Positions 19,659-42,017 of a stretch of DNA of 64,000 nucleotides are shown piece by piece. Every line of letters starts with the position of its first letter. Within the stretch, counting starts at the first letter, position 1. The translations under genes were made by a program, and so were the position numbers. The notes beneath the pieces were generated by a model, which was not told where the DNA came from, searched no databases, and saw nothing but the letters and a program-made list of their open reading frames with translations. The DNA is from a virus, in the IMG/VR virus record IMGVR_UViG_3300044641_002513, positions 1 through 64,000 of that record; one strand, given 5' to 3'.

Positions 19659-19835
19659 TTATCTTTTTCTATTTAAAACGTTTATAAATGCTTGAGCACC
19701 TCGTTTTGTTTTAGCTGACCATATTACTCTAGGAGCATCAGGTCTAGGAACATATTCCCAAAAGAAAAATAATACTTTCTTTTTAACACTAAAAGTTCCG
19801 TCTTGATTTTCTACAATTTTAAATTTTGCTGTCAT
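19659..19835 (-). CDS. Small hypothetical protein (58 aa, not in the ORF track)
   Basis: MTAKFKIVENQDGTFSVKRKVLFFFW...NRKR, with an A-rich upstream region. Confidence 0.6.
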   Translation of the reverse strand: MTAKFKIVENQDGTFSVKKKVLFFFWEYVPRPDAPRVIWSAKTKRGAQAFINVLNRKR

Positions 19836-27913: not shown

Positions 27914-28183
27914 ATGATTTTAGTTCATCTAGATACAAATGATAGTATATTACTACTATGTAATGACAAAAGCTTTCATGCTTTATACTACATTATTAAA
28001 CAGATGGACTTAGATACTAATATTTGGTATGCTGATAAGATTAATAAGACTACTATTGCTAATAAGTTAGAAATATCTCTAGCATCACTAGAGAAAATGA
28101 TAGCTTCGTTAAAGAGAAATAATCTTATTAGACCTACATCAAGAGGTGTTTATCAGCTTACAGAATTATTAAGAGACTACTGA
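27914..28183 (+). CDS. Winged-HTH DNA-binding protein
   Basis: IANKLEISLASLEKMIASLKRNNLIRPTSRGVYQL. Confidence 0.75.
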   Translation: MILVHLDTNDSILLLCNDKSFHALYYIIKQMDLDTNIWYADKINKTTIANKLEISLASLEKMIASLKRNNLIRPTSRGVYQLTELLRDY

Positions 28184-28374
28184 TGGTTATTGGAGAAATT
28201 AAATCAGTTCCACTAGAACAACTTCTAATTAAGGAACAAACGCTAAAACAAAAGTTTGGGTTTTATTGTAGACAGCGCAATAAGACCCTTACTTTTAGCT
28301 ACTCAGTAGCAACACACGGAGAATTATTATTTACTATTAAAGTTAAATTAAATGACAACAACAGAAAGAGTTAA
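28183..28374 (+). CDS. Hypothetical protein
   Basis: Coupled small ORF. Confidence 0.55.
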   Translation: MVIGEIKSVPLEQLLIKEQTLKQKFGFYCRQRNKTLTFSYSVATHGELLFTIKVKLNDNNRKS

Positions 28375-32741: not shown

Positions 32742-35186
32742 ATGAGCTCTCCTGTAAAAATCCAAGGTTATATCAGTTTTCCAAGACAAAAGTTATCTGA
32801 TGCAGAAAAAACAGACCACTGGTATAAAAAGAATATAGACTTTGCAGAGCATCTATTAACATCGGACGTTAATCTACGTTCTAACTTTAAAAATAAAAAA
32901 AGCAACTACAACTTAAGAGTTAACATCATCAGCTCTAAAGACTTTGAGAAGTTTATCAACCCTGATAACTTAGATTTAGAATCTTTACCTGCTTCTTTCC
33001 AACACATAGGAATAGAAAACAGTAAAATTAACTTGTTGTTAGGAGAATATGCTAAAAGAAAGAAAGACTTTAAAGCATACATATCATCTAACGATTCAGA
33101 AAGTATATCTCGTAAAGAACAAACTTTAACTGACACTATAAAAGCAGAACTAGATAACATCATACAGACTACTTCTATTAGTGATGAAGAAATACAAAAA
33201 AGATTACAACAACTAGAAAAATATAAAACTTACCAATTCCAAGATATTGCAGAGATTACTGCTAACAAAATTCTAAAGAAAGAATACAAAGAAGGAGATT
33301 TTGATTTTACTTTCTTAAGAACTTTTGAAGACTTGCTTACAGCAGGAGAAGAAATAATGTATTGTGGAGTATTAGGAGGCAACCCTGTAATGAGACGAGT
33401 TAATCCTATGAACTTATACACAATGGGCGGTAACTCAATGTATATCGAAGATGCCGACATTATTGTAGAATATGGTTATAGGTCAATAGGACAAATAATA
33501 GATGATTACTGGGACGTACTACGACCTGAAGACATTGACTTCTTAGAAAGAGGAAAAGTAGATGCATCATTAGGTTCAGGTGGTGGTATAGGATTAAACA
33601 GAGATATTTCTGTATACGATTACTACGGAGAACAAGGTGCTCTTAATATCTTTCATCCTAACGAAATGGGAGTACGTACATTTGCAGGTGCTTTTGATAC
33701 TTACGGTAACGTACGTGTGCTAAAAGTATGTTGGAGGTCTAGAAGAAAAATAGGTGAGCTTACTTACTTTGATGAAGACGGTAACGAACAAAAAGACTAT
33801 GTTCCTGAAGACTATAAAGTTAACAAAACATTAGGAGAATCTTTAAAATGGATATGGGTTAATGAGTGGATGGAAGGTACTAAGATAGCTGACCATGTAT
33901 ATACAGTAATGAGGCCTGTACCTTATGCTTCTAAATCCCTAGTTAACAAATCAAAAGGTACTCCACCTTATGTAGGTAGCGTAAACTCAACAAATGATTA
34001 CAAGGTTCAATCCTTAATGGATGTGATGAAACCGTTAGCTTATTCTTATGACATTGCTTATTACAAACGTGAATTAGCTATTGCTACCTACAAAGGTTCT
34101 TTTACAGCACTTAACAGTTCTTTAGTGCCATCAGGTTGGGACCCTAAAGAATGGATGAGATATGTAACTATCAATAAATTTGGTTGGTTAGACCCTACTA
34201 ATGAAATACTTAAAGGACCTTCTCAAGGTAAGTCAGCAGGAGCTTTCAATACACTTACAGCTCAACAAATACAAGTAGGTGACCCTAATGAAATAGGAAT
34301 GTATACTAACTTAATGTTAGATATAGAAAATACTCTAGGTAAAATAGCAGGTGTTACAGGTGCTAGAGAAGGGCAAATACAAAACAGAGAAGCCGTTAAT
34401 AATGTAGAACGTGAGGTAGCACAAACTTCTCACATTACAGAAAAATGGTTTGCAATAGATAACAACTTCCGCAAAAGAGTATTAACTAAGTTCTTAGAGT
34501 GTTGTAAATATGCTTATAAAACTAATCCTAAAAAAGGACAATACTTATTAGATGATATGGGGCAACAACTTATAACTCACTTCGACGAGTTTTGTGCTAC
34601 GGAGTATGATTTACACTTGTCTAATTCTTCTAATGACCAACAGTTGTTTAATGACCTTAAAGCATTATCTCAAGCAGCTATTCAAAACGGACAAGCTACT
34701 ATATCAGATTTAATTGCTATTAGCCAATCTGAATCTGTACAAGATGTTGCAAGAAAATTAGAAGACTCTGCTAGAAAAATTAGAGAAGAAAATCAGAAAA
34801 TACAACAACAACAATTAGCTCAACAAGACGAAGCTAATAAATTAATGATGCAAGACAAGCAAGCTCAACGAGAGTGGGAGATTAAAAAACACGACGATGA
34901 TATTGCAGTAGAAAGAGAAAGAATAGAATCTAATATACTTATTGCAAGTATAAAAGAAGAGAATAACAACTACAGAAACAGCACTAATATGGTAGACACT
35001 GATAACAATGGTGTGGGAGATTTATTAGACTTACGTCGCACTGAAGTTGATGAGAATTTTAAACAAGAACAGATTAACTTAAAGCAACAACAGTTAGAAG
35101 AAACAGTTAGAGCTAATAAAGCTAAAGAGGAACTACAGAAAAAATCTATTGCTGCTCAAGCTAACAGAGCTAATGGAGCAAAATAG
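32742..35186 (+). CDS. Portal protein
   Basis: FPRQKL...K...W N-terminus, 814 aa, coiled-coil tail, directly follows TerL. Confidence 0.9.
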   Translation: MSSPVKIQGYISFPRQKLSDAEKTDHWYKKNIDFAEHLLTSDVNLRSNFKNKKSNYNLRVNIISSKDFEKFINPDNLDLESLPASFQHIGIENSKINLLLGEYAKRKKDFKAYISSNDSESISRKEQTLTDTIKAELDNIIQTTSISDEEIQKRLQQLEKYKTYQFQDIAEITANKILKKEYKEGDFDFTFLRTFEDLLTAGEEIMYCGVLGGNPVMRRVNPMNLYTMGGNSMYIEDADIIVEYGYRSIGQIIDDYWDVLRPEDIDFLERGKVDASLGSGGGIGLNRDISVYDYYGEQGALNIFHPNEMGVRTFAGAFDTYGNVRVLKVCWRSRRKIGELTYFDEDGNEQKDYVPEDYKVNKTLGESLKWIWVNEWMEGTKIADHVYTVMRPVPYASKSLVNKSKGTPPYVGSVNSTNDYKVQSLMDVMKPLAYSYDIAYYKRELAIATYKGSFTALNSSLVPSGWDPKEWMRYVTINKFGWLDPTNEILKGPSQGKSAGAFNTLTAQQIQVGDPNEIGMYTNLMLDIENTLGKIAGVTGAREGQIQNREAVNNVEREVAQTSHITEKWFAIDNNFRKRVLTKFLECCKYAYKTNPKKGQYLLDDMGQQLITHFDEFCATEYDLHLSNSSNDQQLFNDLKALSQAAIQNGQATISDLIAISQSESVQDVARKLEDSARKIREENQKIQQQQLAQQDEANKLMMQDKQAQREWEIKKHDDDIAVERERIESNILIASIKEENNNYRNSTNMVDTDNNGVGDLLDLRRTEVDENFKQEQINLKQQQLEETVRANKAKEELQKKSIAAQANRANGAK

Positions 35187-35274
35187 AGCTATAGAACTAT
35201 AAGAGTTTTATAACAATTAATATACCCTATGTATAAAAATAATTTTAATATTGTAACCAATTAAGACAGCAAAT

Positions 35275-36414
35275 ATGAGTACAGAGAATGAAGAGTTATT
35301 TGAAGGACTTCAAATAATGACTCCCTCAGAATTAAATTCAGCAGTAGCTGAATCTAATAAAGAAGAAACTGGAGAAGAAGAAATTGAAGTAGATAACCTA
35401 CAGGAAGTAATAACTCCTGTAGAGAAAACTACTAAACAGAGTAACACTGAATCCTCAGTAGATACTGCTAGTAAAACAGAAGCAGTCTACAAAGGATTAA
35501 TGAAAGAACTTGTTAACGCAGGTATTTTAACAGCAGAAGATGTTGAAAAACTAGATGAGTTGCCAGGTACTTTAGATTCGATTAAATCGTTAGTCGATAA
35601 AACAGTAAAAACTAATTTTAAAAAGGCAGAAGAGAATTGGAAAAAAAGTATGCCAAGTGTTAAGAAACGATTTTTAGAAATCGAAGACGCATTTGACGAA
35701 ACTGACCAAGCTATCTTAATGGCCCAAAGATTAGAGTTCTTTGATAGTATTGATAATGATGCTTTAGAAAAAGATGTAACCTTGCAAAAACAAGTTTACT
35801 TTGACTTATTAAAGTCTAAAAACTTTTCTGACCAAGATGCAATGGAGGCAATAGAAGATGCAGAGTCTGTAGGTAAGCTAGCAGATAAAGCTCTAAAAGC
35901 TATTCCTGAATTAAAAAACCAAGCTCAAGGTTATGTAAAAGAAGCTAAGGCTTTTAAAGAAGAAAGAACTAAAGCAGAGATTGAAGCTCAAAACAAAGCG
36001 TTTGAAAATTTAATCTCAAACATAGAATCTAGAGATGCTTTTATTGATGGGTTAAGCCTAAATAAAGTAGCAAAGGATAGATTAAAAGGTAATATCTTAA
36101 ACCCTGTTTTTAAAGATGATGCAGGCCAAGAGTATAACAGTTTAATGTATAAACAAAAAAGAAACCCAGTAGAGTTTGAAATGCTAATCAACTACTACGA
36201 TACAATTGGGTTATTTAACTTAGATAAGCAAGGTAAGTTTAAACCTGATATTTCTAAATTAAAAAATGTAGCAAAAACAGCTGCGGTAAATGAGTTAGAC
36301 AAAATCATTTCCTCAGAAGAACAAAGAGGCGTAGGACGTAATACATCAGTAGAAACATCACAGAAAACTGAAGGATTACTAAGTATGCTAGAAAGTGCTT
36401 TTACTAAAAAATAA
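35275..36414 (+). CDS. Putative capsid scaffolding protein
   Basis: Acidic N-terminus, helical, lies between portal and MCP. Confidence 0.65.
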   Translation: MSTENEELFEGLQIMTPSELNSAVAESNKEETGEEEIEVDNLQEVITPVEKTTKQSNTESSVDTASKTEAVYKGLMKELVNAGILTAEDVEKLDELPGTLDSIKSLVDKTVKTNFKKAEENWKKSMPSVKKRFLEIEDAFDETDQAILMAQRLEFFDSIDNDALEKDVTLQKQVYFDLLKSKNFSDQDAMEAIEDAESVGKLADKALKAIPELKNQAQGYVKEAKAFKEERTKAEIEAQNKAFENLISNIESRDAFIDGLSLNKVAKDRLKGNILNPVFKDDAGQEYNSLMYKQKRNPVEFEMLINYYDTIGLFNLDKQGKFKPDISKLKNVAKTAAVNELDKIISSEEQRGVGRNTSVETSQKTEGLLSMLESAFTKK

Positions 36415-36449
36415 TAAATATATACCGTTAACAATTTAAAAAAAACAAA

Positions 36450-37961
36450 ATGGCTCAATTACTTCCATTACAAAGGTATGAAGCGAAAGATTACAATGGT
36501 CTGGTAACAGATAACCACTTCTATTCTTTATACCAACAAAAACCACAATTGATTAGTAACGTAATCAAAGAAATCTACAAAACTAATTTACAAGGTAAAC
36601 TTCGTGAATTTGTTGATAGATTTCCTGTTAAAGAAGTAGAACAAGAAAATGGTTTTTACAACTGGATGCTACAAGGACAACAAGATAAAAACTTGCCTTT
36701 AGTAGACGCTGAAACAATCAATGGTCTTACTATTTCTGCTGGAACTTTCCCTGCTAACGTAGGTGCAAACGGAGAGCGTTTCTATTTAATCTTTGACGAA
36801 CCTTTGTTTGAAGAAACAAACGTACTAAGAGGAGAAGTTGATGATTACCACTTATTAGTTAAAAAAGCTATGGATGCTGGTTCTCGTTACAAAGTAGAAG
36901 TTGAATTAGTTACAGACAATCCTAACAAAACTGTTCCTTCTGAGGAATTAGCTGTTGGAACTCGTTGGTCTAAATACTATTCATTAAGTCCTTCTACATT
37001 ATCTTATCAAGGTGCTAAACCTTACTTTACATCTCCTTGGAGAATGGAAAACCGTCCTACAACAATGAGAATGGAATATGAAGTAGCAGGTAACACTATT
37101 AATAAAGGTAAAAACGAACCATTAGAATTTGGTTTCAATTACAAAGGACAATCTGAGTCTGTATGGATTAACTACCAAGATTTAGTTGCTCATCACCAGT
37201 GTGAAGAAATGTTCGCAAGAATGTTAATGTACGGTAAGAAAAACTGGACTGCTGACCACAAATACTTGAACAAAGATGATAAAACGAAATATGCTATCGA
37301 ATCAGGTGCAGGTTTCTTTGAGCAAATTGCTCCATCTAACGTTCATTACTATAATACTTATGACCTTGACTGGCATTTAGAAATGTTGTTAGACATGGGT
37401 GTTGGTAAATTAGAGCGTGGAAAACGTACTATCCACTTGTTAACAGGTGAGTTTGGTGCTATCGAAATCTCTAAACAAATCAACGCTAAATCAGGTGCAG
37501 GTAAGTTTACAGTAATCTCTGACAAATTCTTAACTTCTAATACTAACCCAGGAAACTTAGGTGGAAAAAACACTAAAGGTTTAATGGAGCCACAATGGAA
37601 TGTTTACGAATGGTACAATGGAGTTACTATTATGGTTGAAATCGTTGATTTCTTCGATGATGATGTATACTTCCCACAACGTCACCCTGATGGTAAAGGT
37701 ATCGTAGAATCACACAGAATCCTTGCTTTAGATTATGGAGATAATGCAGGTATCTACCGTATTAAACCAAAAGGAGTTCCTGATTACAATTGGGCTTATA
37801 TCCCAGGTATGAGAGACCCATTCTCTCCAGCAGGAAAAGGTTCACCTAAAATGGTAGCTTCACCAGTTGACGGTTACTCTGTACATTTCCAGAAATGGGG
37901 TGGTATGATGATCGAAGACCCAACTAAAGTTGTAGACTTACGCTTAGTAGTTGAAAGATGA
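36450..37961 (+). CDS. Major capsid protein (crAss-like)
   Basis: 503 aa, strong codon bias, position, followed by a terminator. Confidence 0.88.
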   Translation: MAQLLPLQRYEAKDYNGLVTDNHFYSLYQQKPQLISNVIKEIYKTNLQGKLREFVDRFPVKEVEQENGFYNWMLQGQQDKNLPLVDAETINGLTISAGTFPANVGANGERFYLIFDEPLFEETNVLRGEVDDYHLLVKKAMDAGSRYKVEVELVTDNPNKTVPSEELAVGTRWSKYYSLSPSTLSYQGAKPYFTSPWRMENRPTTMRMEYEVAGNTINKGKNEPLEFGFNYKGQSESVWINYQDLVAHHQCEEMFARMLMYGKKNWTADHKYLNKDDKTKYAIESGAGFFEQIAPSNVHYYNTYDLDWHLEMLLDMGVGKLERGKRTIHLLTGEFGAIEISKQINAKSGAGKFTVISDKFLTSNTNPGNLGGKNTKGLMEPQWNVYEWYNGVTIMVEIVDFFDDDVYFPQRHPDGKGIVESHRILALDYGDNAGIYRIKPKGVPDYNWAYIPGMRDPFSPAGKGSPKMVASPVDGYSVHFQKWGGMMIEDPTKVVDLRLVVER

Positions 37962-37975
37962 TAAAATTTTAAACG

Positions 37976-38008
37976 AGTTCTCCTCCCTAAAAAGAGGAGG
38001 ACTTTTTT
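37976..38008 (+). terminator. Intrinsic terminator after MCP
   Basis: AGTTCTCCTC/GAGGAGGACT stem followed by a T run. Confidence 0.75.
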
Positions 38009-38048
38009 AAAACGGAGAATTTAATATAATAATTTAAGACAGCAAAAA

Positions 38049-38987
38049 ATGGAAACAGCAGAAAAACAAAAAACTGTTTACGGTACTTTTCTACAAAATA
38101 GATTAGTTTCTGTAAAAGCAGTAGAGTCTTCAGGCAAATGGAGCACGTTATTAGTAAAAGGTCAAGAAAAACAAAAAGACCCTTTTATGTATAACAAAGT
38201 AAAACGAAGCTATCAAGTACCACTTAATAGCGAATTAAAAGGAGGAGGAGTAAAAGTTATTTTGGACGACCAAAAGAGAGTCAAAATCCAAAAGTATATG
38301 GAATCATTTCCTAACGGAATGACCCAAAAAGAGTTCTTTGAAAAAGAGTTAGGAGTAGACTTAAACCCTACATCAGAAGCAGATAAAAACTTCTGGAGAA
38401 GTGATCGTAGAGGTAGAGTAGTTATTACTAAAGAAGGGATGACATTAAACTTGAATCAATCTTTAGATATGTTAAAGTATCTAATACTGATTTCTAATAG
38501 AATGCTTATCGCTCCATCTTACGATGAGAGAACCTTAAAAGCTACTTACGAGTTTATGATTGTAGATGAAAGTAAAGTTACATCTCAAAAACTTGAAGAA
38601 GCTAACGTAAAATCTCAAGCTTATATTAAGTTTGCTGAAGTTACAAACAGTCGTTCTTCTATCATAGGATTTATTAAATCACTAGGTAGAACTATTCCTG
38701 CTACTGCTACTGATGAATGGCTAAAAGGAGAAGTATTAAATGTTGTTGATAACAGCCCTAAATATTTCTTAGAAGTAGTTGACCATCCGCAGTATAACGA
38801 GCGTATCTTTGTACAAGAAGCTATTGAAGCTGGTGCAATAATTCGTAAAGGAGAAAAAAGATATGTTTTAGATAACGGTGCTGAATTAGGAGACTTAAAT
38901 GATACTATCAATTATCTTTTAAATCCTGATAACCAAGAATCTAAAATGAGAATAAAAGGAAAAATTGAACTATTAAAACGTAAATAA
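38049..38987 (+). CDS. Conserved crAss-like capsid-module protein
   Basis: Follows MCP, as in the crAss-like gene order. Confidence 0.65.
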   Translation: METAEKQKTVYGTFLQNRLVSVKAVESSGKWSTLLVKGQEKQKDPFMYNKVKRSYQVPLNSELKGGGVKVILDDQKRVKIQKYMESFPNGMTQKEFFEKELGVDLNPTSEADKNFWRSDRRGRVVITKEGMTLNLNQSLDMLKYLILISNRMLIAPSYDERTLKATYEFMIVDESKVTSQKLEEANVKSQAYIKFAEVTNSRSSIIGFIKSLGRTIPATATDEWLKGEVLNVVDNSPKYFLEVVDHPQYNERIFVQEAIEAGAIIRKGEKRYVLDNGAELGDLNDTINYLLNPDNQESKMRIKGKIELLKRK

Positions 38988-39751
38988 TGACGGCTAACGA
39001 AATGGCTAATTTGCTAGATGAGAAAGTAGATAGAGTATCTAGTTTTGGTTCCCCTGGGTACGAAGACTTTGACTACACTTCTGTATTATCTGAAGCACAA
39101 CAGCTATACGTTAAAAAGTTTTTTGATGAAGTAAACAATAGAAAAGGCAAAGGCTTTGAAGAAATTGAAATAAGAAACCAAGGATTAGCTGCTCTAGTAA
39201 AGGACGGTAACAACCTAACGGCTTCTGCTTCTCAAACAGGAATTATTACGAATAATTATGTTATAGGAAAGTTCTTTGATTTACCGCTTGACCACATGTA
39301 TACTATATACGAAGAGTGTACTATAGATAAAAAGATATGTGGAACAGAGGAATTTATTATTGGGTACATAGTAACAATTGCTCACAATGAAATGCAAAGG
39401 TTTAACTGGAGCAAATATAAAAAACCGTTTTACAACATTACGGGAGATTGTAGAGTTTGGCGTTCTGAGTTTTCAAGAAGCACTTCTGGTATTTTACCTA
39501 GTGCTGCTGCAACTGCTAAACGTCACGAATTGTTTACTGATAAAACTTTTAATATAACTAACTATCATATTAGATATGTTAAAAACCCATTAGACATAGT
39601 AGTTAATAGAACTACTGTTGCTAATCAAAGAAACTGTGAATTAGATACTTCAACTCACGTAGTTATAGTAGATATTGCAGCAGACTTGTTACTACAAAGA
39701 GTTAAAGAACAAAAAGTTCCTTTAATAGAAGGATTTAAAGATTTAGAATAA
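38987..39751 (+). CDS. Head-tail ring/adaptor protein
   Basis: L.EAQ..YVK, Y.IRYVKNP..I, CEL...H..IV.IA pattern. Confidence 0.7.
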   Translation: MTANEMANLLDEKVDRVSSFGSPGYEDFDYTSVLSEAQQLYVKKFFDEVNNRKGKGFEEIEIRNQGLAALVKDGNNLTASASQTGIITNNYVIGKFFDLPLDHMYTIYEECTIDKKICGTEEFIIGYIVTIAHNEMQRFNWSKYKKPFYNITGDCRVWRSEFSRSTSGILPSAAATAKRHELFTDKTFNITNYHIRYVKNPLDIVVNRTTVANQRNCELDTSTHVVIVDIAADLLLQRVKEQKVPLIEGFKDLE

Positions 39752-39782
39752 TAAAAGATTAATAATTTAAAAACAAAATAAA

Positions 39783-41078
39783 ATGTTAAGAAAAGCAAAC
39801 AATGTGTTTAGCGTAGTGCTAAACGACGTAGATGTAGCTACTACAGCATTACCGTCTGTAGGTACAGTTATTACAAACGCTAACTTACCTGCTGGTGCAG
39901 TCGTACTATGTGACTTAGGTTTACGTAGAATGTCTAACACTGAATATGCAGCGTTAGCAAATGGTGACCAATACTTTGTAGTACAAGGTAAAGGAGCTAC
40001 TGAGCCATTAATGAAATCTCCAGTTATTACTAAAGGAACTGCTAAGTTTACTATTGCTAAACACAAACCTGCTGTTCAGCAAGTTACAACTGTTGGTTAT
40101 AATGGTACAACTGGTGCTCTTCCTGTAGCTAGCAACTCTGATTTCTTTATTAAAGTTCGTAAGCACGATAACGATGCAGCTAACCGTTCTCAACCTATGA
40201 GTTTATTTGCTGGTCCAGTTCGTACTGATGCTTCAGGTACTCAAGAAGAATTGGCTTTTGCATTAGTTGCAAATGGTTTAAAAAACTTTGCACAAGAGCC
40301 TGCTAATGGTTACTTGAAATTTGAAGCATTAGTTGCTGGAACTCAAGCTGACTGGGTAGGAACTGCAACACACTTATCTTTTACTAAAGGTTCAAGAGTA
40401 GCTTTGTTTACTGATAGTGCAGGTGCAGCTTCTACAGCTACAGCTCCAACTGTAGGTGGTATCTTACGTTCATTAGGAGTAGCTTATAAAATTACAGCTT
40501 CTTCTACTACGTCTGTTACATTAAACTATGCTTACCAAGGTGATACAGGTTTAGTAGCAGGTGGTACTACAGCAGCTTCTCAAGTAGGTATTGTAGGAAC
40601 TCCAGGTGACTACGGTGTACGTTTGACAGGTGTTGCTGCTCCATTTAATGTTAACACATTTAGAGATTACTACGCTAACCGTTTCAATGTAACTTTCTCA
40701 GATACGTCTACTTTAGTTACTTTGCTTACAGGTGCTCGTAATGGTAATGGTGTATGGCAACAAGTTGCTATGGACGAATATATGAACTACGGTTTTGAAG
40801 GAGAAAATAACCAATTGGCTACTCCTTCTGTACCTCGTGACCAAGTTGTTAAAATCCCAGGAGTAAACAGCAACACTGCTGCTACTTCTAAATACTCTGC
40901 TCTTAACATTGCTTGGGAAGAGAATATTGGCGGATTAGTTTCAGCTTCAACTGCAAGAGGTAACGTAGTAGTATATCTTAATTTAGATTCTTCAGGAGAC
41001 TTAGACACAGCTACATCTAACAATGGTGAAGCATTTGTAGTAGCTTTAGGTCTTACTGCGGCAGATTTTGACGAGTAA
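39783..41078 (+). CDS. Abundant virion protein, probable auxiliary capsid protein
   Basis: Ala/Thr/Gly-rich, MCP-like codon bias, followed by a terminator. Confidence 0.65.
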   Translation: MLRKANNVFSVVLNDVDVATTALPSVGTVITNANLPAGAVVLCDLGLRRMSNTEYAALANGDQYFVVQGKGATEPLMKSPVITKGTAKFTIAKHKPAVQQVTTVGYNGTTGALPVASNSDFFIKVRKHDNDAANRSQPMSLFAGPVRTDASGTQEELAFALVANGLKNFAQEPANGYLKFEALVAGTQADWVGTATHLSFTKGSRVALFTDSAGAASTATAPTVGGILRSLGVAYKITASSTTSVTLNYAYQGDTGLVAGGTTAASQVGIVGTPGDYGVRLTGVAAPFNVNTFRDYYANRFNVTFSDTSTLVTLLTGARNGNGVWQQVAMDEYMNYGFEGENNQLATPSVPRDQVVKIPGVNSNTAATSKYSALNIAWEENIGGLVSASTARGNVVVYLNLDSSGDLDTATSNNGEAFVVALGLTAADFDE

Positions 41079-41092
41079 ATTCTCCAACCCCC

Positions 41093-41147
41093 AGTAGTCC
41101 CACCACAGAAATTTTGCTGTCTATGTGGTGGGTACTACTATTTTTTT
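41093..41147 (+). terminator. Intrinsic terminator with a large loop
   Basis: AGTAGT-CCCACCACA...TGTGGTGGG-TACTACT followed by T7. Confidence 0.8.
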
Positions 41148-41174
41148 GTTTACTTTTGAATATATAAAATTGTT

Positions 41175-42017
41175 ATGGCTCTACTCCCTAAAATTTCTAG
41201 TAGTTTATCAGGTAAATGCAACTTAATTTCTTTTACAGAGCAAACTAATCCCTATGTAATAACTACTAACACAGGAGGCTGGGGTTCGCCTAACATAGAT
41301 ACAGACGAAGTACAATACGCAAGCGTAGCGTTCTATAACTTAGAACAGACTCCTGCAATACTAGCATCAGGAAACGGAACCATTGTTGGTAACGTTTTTA
41401 CAGATGTTATACATTTAACAGGAACTTTTGCTATTGGTCAAGCACTAATAGCTCCAGGAATAGCTCCTGGTACAGTAATCACAGCATTTCTTACAGGTAA
41501 TGGTACTAATAACGGAGGTACTTATCAAGTTAATATAGCTCAACCTATTTCTTTAACTGTTATTAACGGAGTTTCTTTAGTTTCTCAATACATACTTAAA
41601 GACACTACTACAGGTCTAGACTTATATGCAAATGCAGTCTCTGCTCCTACACCTGGGAGTTTTCCTATTTTAACTGAAGCTACTTGGTCTAACCCTGATG
41701 GAATTTACCAATTAGTTTACATTGTTATAGGACCAGAAGACGAAGTATATACTAATGAAACTCAACACGTACTGTTCTTATGCAATTTATGTAATTGTAA
41801 AGATGCTTTAGTACTAAAACTAATTAATGCTTGTAACACGCCAACAGTAGCCAAGTTAAAAGAGCAAGTTGACCAAATGGAAATATTTATCTATGGAATC
41901 AAAACTGCTTTTGCTTGTGCCGACTTTGATACTGCTGATAACATACTAAACGCTGCTTCAACTTATTGTGAAACCATTGTAGGTTGTGCAAGTTGTGGGT
42001 GTTCAGGTAATTGCTAA
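41175..42017 (+). CDS. Tail-associated structural protein
   Basis: GGWGSPN and DGIY motifs, Cys-rich C-terminus. Confidence 0.6.
   Translation: MALLPKISSSLSGKCNLISFTEQTNPYVITTNTGGWGSPNIDTDEVQYASVAFYNLEQTPAILASGNGTIVGNVFTDVIHLTGTFAIGQALIAPGIAPGTVITAFLTGNGTNNGGTYQVNIAQPISLTVINGVSLVSQYILKDTTTGLDLYANAVSAPTPGSFPILTEATWSNPDGIYQLVYIVIGPEDEVYTNETQHVLFLCNLCNCKDALVLKLINACNTPTVAKLKEQVDQMEIFIYGIKTAFACADFDTADNILNAASTYCETIVGCASCGCSGNC

Follow-up and report, generated by a model that had tools for sequence, protein, structure and literature searches.

The DNA analysed here (the window) is the first 64 kb of the 88,896-base-pair (bp) IMG/VR record IMGVR_UViG_3300044641_002513, and the subject is a set of short complementary words located at the starts of two genes that flank the major capsid gene and at the 3′ end of an operon further downstream. 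The window codes for a crAss-type large terminase, portal and major capsid protein (PHROGs, and Pfam Crass_capsid for the capsid protein), and near-identical DNA was found in lake-water metagenome runs; the source is an uncultured lake crAss-like phage. Its capsid protein is at most 31% identical to those of the closest isolates, which are cultured crAss-like phages, and a megablast search of the region against deposited phages gave no matches. The portal gene (32742-35186) is followed by a 379-amino-acid gene, here termed S (35275-36414), which lies upstream of the capsid gene in the position of crAssphage gene 77, then by the major capsid gene (36450-37961), and then by g312 (38049-38987), g254 (38987-39751), which codes for a crAss tail ring protein 3/4, and g431 (39783-41078). 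The g312-g254-g431 unit (38049-41078, + strand) is placed between the leader boxes described below and their complements, and a new unit begins at 41175, downstream of g431. About 230 related loci were gathered from viral and metagenome contigs, and the homologous genes were located in each. The three genes of the unit were colinear on the + strand in 146 of the 146 relatives with enough sequence. Relatives with a capsid protein identity of 79% or more are referred to as the main clade, and the motif counts given for it refer to distinct sequences.

A Shine-Dalgarno-like word was found in only 2 of 87 genes, and the leaders are A-rich and poor in G and C. Few Shine-Dalgarno sites together with A-rich leaders are the pattern of Bacteroidota. 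Against leaders of this composition the word GACAGC, of which the window holds only 7 sites on both strands, is conspicuous. The initial annotation had reported one motif ahead of two start codons and its complement in a terminator loop, and all of its coordinates were correct: TTAAGACAGCAAA is located at 35261-35273, 1 nucleotide (nt) ahead of the S ATG (35275), and at 38034-38046, 2 nt ahead of the g312 ATG (38049), and the complement TTTTGCTGTCT lies in the loop. We termed the leader copies Box2. Copy 1, AGACAGCAAA (35264-35273, + strand), ends 1 nt before the ATG of S, and copy 2, AGACAGCAAAA (38037-38047, + strand), ends 1 nt before the ATG of g312, whereas Box2′, TTTTGCTGTCT (41112-41122, + strand), is contained in the loop of the hairpin after g431. 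The 10-mer AGACAGCAAA has exactly three sites in the whole 88,896-bp record when both strands are searched, namely the two on the + strand before the S and g312 ATGs and the complement in the 16-nt loop after g431, and its reversed control has none in the whole record. The predicted duplex of the loop reached -14.9 kcal/mol with the S leader and -15.8 kcal/mol with the g312 leader, and in neither case was any of 1000 shuffles as good. Both leaders are predicted to be unstructured.

A second complementary pair, unrelated to the first, joins g312 and g431. The g312 leader begins behind the terminator of the capsid gene, a hairpin with a T-run at 37975-38010 (+ strand; -20.2 kcal/mol, z = -3.6); relatives also have a hairpin after the capsid gene, with different stems. 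Box1, GGAGAATTTA (38014-38023, + strand), is located in this leader about 26 nt before the ATG. It is a perfect 10-nt complement of Box1′, TAAATTCTCC (41076-41085, + strand), which overlaps the g431 stop codon, and their duplex of -13.0 kcal/mol was matched by 0 of 1000 shuffles. Both Box1′ and the loop, the two potential seeds of the g431 3′ end, are predicted to be unpaired.

The terminator hairpin after g431

The loop that holds Box2′ is an open 16-nt stretch, GAAATTTTGCTGTCTA (41108-41123, + strand), carried by a hairpin of about 13-15 bp (41094-41140, + strand; -23.9 kcal/mol, z = -4.8). A T-run (41141-41148, + strand) completes an intrinsic (Rho-independent) terminator, that is, a stable hairpin followed by a T-run, although with a loop that exceeds the size limit of a simple terminator scanner. 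When the stems of 41 distinct hairpins were aligned, 99.8% of the cells paired, and 9 of the 13 pairs had changed on both sides, which was reached by none of 500 shuffles. The loop was more conserved than the stem among the distinct hairpins of relatives. Hence, the stem evolves as a structure and the loop is kept as a sequence. A fixed loop on a changing stem is the opposite of what an ordinary terminator needs. A pattern scan of the whole collection for the hairpin returned many chance matches, with real hairpins in only 30 of 75 new stretches, so that no family size is claimed; of 30 independent pattern matches, 28 sit directly 3′ of a g431 homologue. An Rfam scan of 34800-41600, with E up to 10, yielded six chance-level matches, none of them to any phage RNA family. 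A role of the loop as -33 box in the promoter of the gene that follows was also considered, and rejected because the downstream TTTG is not conserved in relatives. As to transcripts, in one lake RNA run a contig ends at 41092, and another, from a close relative, starts at the first base of the hairpin (41093), immediately beside adapter sequence. The latter start hints at an RNA end at the base of the hairpin, but weakly and as a single instance.

Conservation and covariation of the boxes

In the main clade, GACAGC was found in 72 of 74 distinct S leaders and in 103 of 109 distinct post-capsid regions, and GCTGTC was present in all of the loops (58/58). This clade is otherwise divergent, with changed intergenic DNA and g431 proteins that are only 50-60% identical, and the conservation of the triad in these relatives demonstrates that the pattern is not due to chance. 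The position of the g312 tag varies: it may lie up to about 15 nt upstream of the ATG, overlap it as ATGACAGCA, or occupy codons 4-7 in different frames. Such variation of position and frame points to a constraint at the nucleotide level within the ribosome-binding window, and the aligned sequences indicate that it would act on the nucleotides rather than on the protein or on the position of a promoter. In the window, the start of the g312 coding sequence, ATGGAAACAGCAG (38049-38062, + strand), also contains AACAGCA, a near-copy of the tag. Several relatives have an exact second copy at this place (ATGGAGACAGCA), which leaves some leaders with two tandem tags.

The loop and leader words change together in related phages, which is the check that the initial annotation had proposed: they are kept together in a wide clade, replaced together in the 55% clade and lost together in the L249/L250 lineage. 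The 64% outgroup has only two + strand GACAGC words in 13.5 kb, one located 10 nt after the S ATG and the other on the g312 ATG, and its loop retains GCTGTC. The 55% clade is represented by two distinct sequences (L157 and L158), both of which carry the loop AAGTCTGCC (GTCTGCC) at the same place. In L157 the S gene begins with ATGGCAGACTT, 9 nt of which complement the loop, and g312 begins with ATGGCAGAC; L158 has ATGGCAGAC for S, and its g312 start matches only partially (GGCAG). The word GGCAGAC has only three sites per locus in this clade. The hairpins concerned (L157:8315-8408 and L158:10553-10654) have a 30-nt loop and no T-run and are enclosed by a second, outer helix, so that this hairpin is not an obvious terminator, though its loop complements the S start in both sequences and the g312 start in L157, with only a partial match in L158. 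Both contigs of the L249/L250 lineage lack the two start-site motifs, and L249 lacks the loop motif as well; the L250 contig ends before the hairpin.

The Box1/Box1′ pair was found in at least eight mutually complementary versions, namely GAGAATTA/TAATTCTC, GAGAATTTA/TAAATTCTC, GGAGAAAAA/TTTTTCTCC, GAGAGAAAA/TTTTCTCTC, AAGAGAAAA/TTTTCTCTT, TTGGGAGA/TCTCCCAA, GAGAGAAAGA/TCTTTCTCTC and CGAGAGAAAAA/TTTTTCTCTCG. The shuffle p values ranged from 0.003 to 0.03 for the first six of them (that is, all except GAGAGAAAGA/TCTTTCTCTC and CGAGAGAAAAA/TTTTTCTCTCG). The TAA of Box1′ is conserved even where the true stop codon sits a few bases upstream. On the capsid tree, a version of Box1 that is longer by one base recurs in the subclade of the window itself, nested among the shorter version.

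Upstream of S and of its Box2 copy lies a promoter-like box, TTTTAATATTGTAAC (35243-35257, + strand), which occurs once per genome, is present in all S leaders of the clade and is nearly invariant across it. In six genomes, AATATTGTAAC was found only at this upstream box, and similar boxes are present in the 55-75% outgroups. TTTTAATATTGTAAC is probably the promoter of the capsid operon, and TAATATTG resembles the Bacteroidota -7 box. If so, transcription would start a few bases before Box2 and the S leader would be only about 20 nt long. In the crAss-like phage phi14:2, promoters for the host RNA polymerase are located upstream of the homologue of S.

Other words were observed in a more distant group. 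In L265 (10856-10946) and its relatives, at about 53% capsid identity, CTCTAGCTCTTTTG is found in the 3′ untranslated region (UTR), and AAGAGC(T)A or AGAGAG immediately precedes the ATG in the S and g312-like leaders of this 53% clade. The same principle may be realised here with linear seeds.

A putative contact between the g431 3′ end and the gene starts

Taking together the complementarity, its conservation and covariation, and the hairpin, we consider it probable that the g431 message pairs through its 3′ end with the start regions of S and g312, either in cis or as a 3′-derived small RNA, and that this pairing is repressive. The g431 3′ end would expose two seeds, the pyrimidine box Box1′ (UAAAUUCUCC) at the stop codon and Box2′ (UUUUGCUGUCU) in the terminator loop. 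The g312 leader would pair with both of them, through Box1 (GGAGAAUUUA, about 26 nt upstream of the AUG) and through Box2 (AGACAGCAAAA, beside the AUG), and the very short S leader would pair with the loop alone. The hosts are presumed not to use Shine-Dalgarno sites and to need open A-rich leaders, and for that reason pairing should close the start sites and lower the translation of S and g312. Since repression would set in after the operon has been transcribed to its end, it could work as a feedback or as a timer. The cis form would amount to a 5′-3′ closure of one messenger RNA (mRNA), and the trans form to a 3′-derived small RNA of about 70 nt. The meeting of the RNAs, its cis or trans route and the repressive effect are thus what we infer from these features.

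The initial annotation had attributed the complementarity to a small RNA derived from the 3′ UTR, or to a long-range kissing interaction, that would set the stoichiometry of capsid proteins. The co-change of loop and leaders and the covariation of Box1 support the RNA-RNA contact in this proposal, whereas three parts of it found no support, namely the setting of capsid protein stoichiometry, the scaffold label and the assignment of g312 to the capsid. S had been labelled as a scaffold gene; it has no match in PHROG, Pfam or PDB. A PDB sequence search with S, g312 and g431 gave no matches, and in the case of S this leaves the scaffold label unverified. The gene after the capsid gene had been counted with the capsid module, but the operon of g312 contains a tail ring protein, which places it with the neck and tail.

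Several observations weigh against the proposed pairing. About 6 of 20 sequence classes show only weak Box1 pairing or none, and if phages exchanged the g312-g431 module as a whole, both Box1 partners would travel together, so that the independent events are fewer than the versions. The two boxes follow each other in identical 5′-to-3′ order on both partners, and hence no single continuous duplex can form but two separate helices; moreover, an 11-bp helix within a 16-nt loop is sterically tight. The Box2 core is invariant within the main clade, and therefore the covariation of Box2 rests on few deep lineages, which provide three supporting contrasts. In the main clade the flanks of the S leader and the loop showed no cognate advantage (9.2 nt versus 8.9 nt for non-cognate combinations). 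In the 53% clade the g431 homologue is followed by a plain terminator with a small loop and by no anti-leader loop, and the cultured phage phi14:2 has the same gene order and a terminator after gp099 whose loop has no complement in the leaders. Finally, four lake metatranscriptome runs contained only contigs of 150-300 nt of the phage or its close relatives, in which neither transcript starts or ends nor a small RNA could be seen.

The trans form could reach further targets. The initial annotation had noticed a 13-nt match of the loop at the start of the open reading frame (ORF) 19659..19835, with the reservation that it may be chance, and this match is real: ATGACAGCAAAATTT (19821-19833, - strand) stands at the start of the small ORF 19835..19659 and is a candidate third target. 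Its 13 nt of complementarity to the loop are the longest in the genome (-17.6 kcal/mol; 0 of 1000 shuffles as good). In five related genomes, 1-3 small minus-strand ORFs per genome have ATGACAGCA as their start or the tag ahead of their ATG, and these ORFs belong to at least four unrelated families. Starts of the form ATGACAGCA numbered 10, with 1.65 expected, and in six genomes 23 of 68 GACAGCA sites fell in start windows, with 1.4 expected. These small ORFs are possible early-gene targets of a late RNA. A broader variant of the pairing model would give the element two jobs: closure in cis as a transcription-completion timer that sets the ratio of virion proteins, with g312 translated only until the polymerase reaches the end of the operon, and silencing in trans by a stable 3′ fragment, which would act on S and on a changing set of small, tagged, early genes of the opposite strand. 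We regard this double function as doubtful. If true, it would add a general, so far undescribed level at which crAss-like phages control their genes in hosts that lack Shine-Dalgarno sites.

The sense tag was also seen in a hairpin elsewhere in the window. At 28258-28288 (+ strand), within the small ORF 28183-28374 and about 64 nt short of the following gene, there is an 11-bp hairpin whose loop carries tAGACAGCg. At the homologous place of a related genome (G001) this loop recurs on a hairpin with another stem, and other relatives carry GACAGC at non-homologous codons. The hairpin of the window could kiss the terminator loop, or it could be there by chance. A second copy of the composite element near 28.3 kb on the minus strand was considered and rejected: the shared words lie in a small conserved ORF at non-homologous positions, and the likeness is thus mostly coding or chance.

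The tag statistics also speak for a different explanation, in which the leader tag is primarily a translation signal of a small set of phage genes, either an enhancer or a contact site for the host ribosome or for a host or phage factor, and the loop mimics that partner or acts as its decoy and does not repress the mRNAs directly, or in which the pairing activates or stabilises. The excess of GACAGCA in start windows, which includes the four or more unrelated families of small ORFs, and the excess of ATGACAGCA starts would be expected of such a signal, and the tag is placed where a ribosome-binding signal would be in a non-Shine-Dalgarno host. On the other hand, the tag is found on only 3-6 of the approximately 100 genes per genome, and the switch of the pair in the 55% clade and the covariation of Box1 are predicted by direct pairing and not by a fixed host partner. 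We therefore consider a translation signal unlikely.

It is still less likely that the loop is an operator for an RNA-binding protein, or an element of termination or mRNA stability, to which the complementarity of the leaders would be incidental. Distant clades do have a hairpin at this place, with other loops or with plain small loops, which suggests that the hairpin is older than the tag system and has a basic role at the end of the operon. However, the start tags are as conserved as the loop, they switch together with it in the 55% clade and vanish together with it in the L249/L250 lineage, and Box1′ lies outside the hairpin and yet has a covarying partner.

We find it very improbable, too, that the motifs are sites in double-stranded DNA, for a late regulator, a promoter element or recombination, which would be read in either orientation and would leave the hairpin as a terminator only. 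Complementary words are by definition one and the same site in duplex DNA, and the S copy lies just downstream of the conserved promoter-like box. DNA sites, however, leave unexplained that one copy is always in the unpaired loop of a compensatorily evolving stem, that the g312 copy shifts around the start codon and even into the coding sequence, and that there is a second, unrelated pair that covaries; in addition, the order of the boxes is unlike that of a composite inverted repeat. An invertible segment was rejected as well, given the colinearity of all 146 loci and a box order that is the same on both sides instead of mirrored. Two A-rich leaders could also match an ordinary terminator by coincidence, given short words (10-11 nt), an AT-rich genome and a motif chosen after the fact. 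The rarity of the triad, its conservation and the covariation speak against such a coincidence, and the comparative data practically refute it.

Significance and comparison with known systems

Few viruses of Bacteroidota from the gut, fresh water and the sea are as abundant as the crAss-like phages, and to our knowledge almost nothing is known about the control of translation by such phages in hosts that lack Shine-Dalgarno recognition. Literature searches turned up no paper describing an element of this kind in crAss-like phages. An RNA element that is backed by covariation and mirrors the starts of the capsid-flanking genes offers a concrete mechanism, with defined seeds and targets and with natural compensatory variants. 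If the pairing takes place, it would illustrate how a terminator loop can serve as an antisense seed and how the message of a DNA phage can communicate from 3′ to 5′.

Structured 3′ ends that act on upstream genes are known from other viruses. In plant RNA viruses, 3′ translation elements kiss the 5′ leaders and enhance cap-independent translation in eukaryotes, and in the sib retroregulation of lambda a 3′ element creates an RNase III site. The likeness to these systems consists in the structured 3′ end with an effect on upstream genes and is a mechanistic analogy only.

Enterobacteria have base-pairing small RNAs derived from 3′ UTRs, of the CpxQ, SroC and DapZ type. The putative RNA considered here resembles them in that it would share the terminator of an mRNA and would have conserved single-stranded seeds and targets in start regions: the seeds are unpaired in the fold and are invariant or covarying, and their complementarity to start regions co-evolves. 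In Bacteroides, GibS is described as a trans-acting small RNA (PMC7366714). The element differs from the 3′-UTR-derived small RNAs and from GibS in that it is encoded by a phage, with phage targets, and has one of its seeds inside the terminator loop.

Contacts between the two ends of one message have been described in cellular genes. In the icaR mRNA of Staphylococcus aureus (PMC3868564) and the hbs mRNA of Bacillus subtilis (PMC5737220), translation or stability is controlled by pairing of a pyrimidine-rich box in the 3′ UTR with a purine-rich box in the message's own 5′ leader. The likeness lies in the way in which Box1 and Box1′ flank g312-g254-g431, presumably on a single transcript. In icaR the 5′ box is the Shine-Dalgarno site, whereas here Box1 is about 26 nt upstream of the AUG and it is Box2 that abuts it. 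Both icaR and hbs, moreover, are single cellular genes, whereas here a contact of the terminator loop is added, together with a second target gene 5.8 kb upstream.

The c4 antisense RNA of phages P1 and P7, from the immI operon c4-icd-ant, is likewise a phage RNA that comes from the same operon as its target. According to work by Citron and Schuster from 1990, c4 reportedly acts by base pairing of two short exposed stretches with two boxes that surround the translation start of the gene behind it, and related phages are said to differ in seed and target together. The C4 antisense RNA blocks the expression of immI genes (PMC8198154). The resemblance is functional only, as the Rfam scan of 34800-41600 gave no sequence or structure match to the P1/P7 c4 family. 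Furthermore, c4 is located upstream of its targets, is processed from a leader and controls an antirepressor, and thereby immunity, whereas the element described here closes a late virion operon at its 3′ end and would have head and neck genes as its targets, in a Bacteroidota-like host without Shine-Dalgarno sites.

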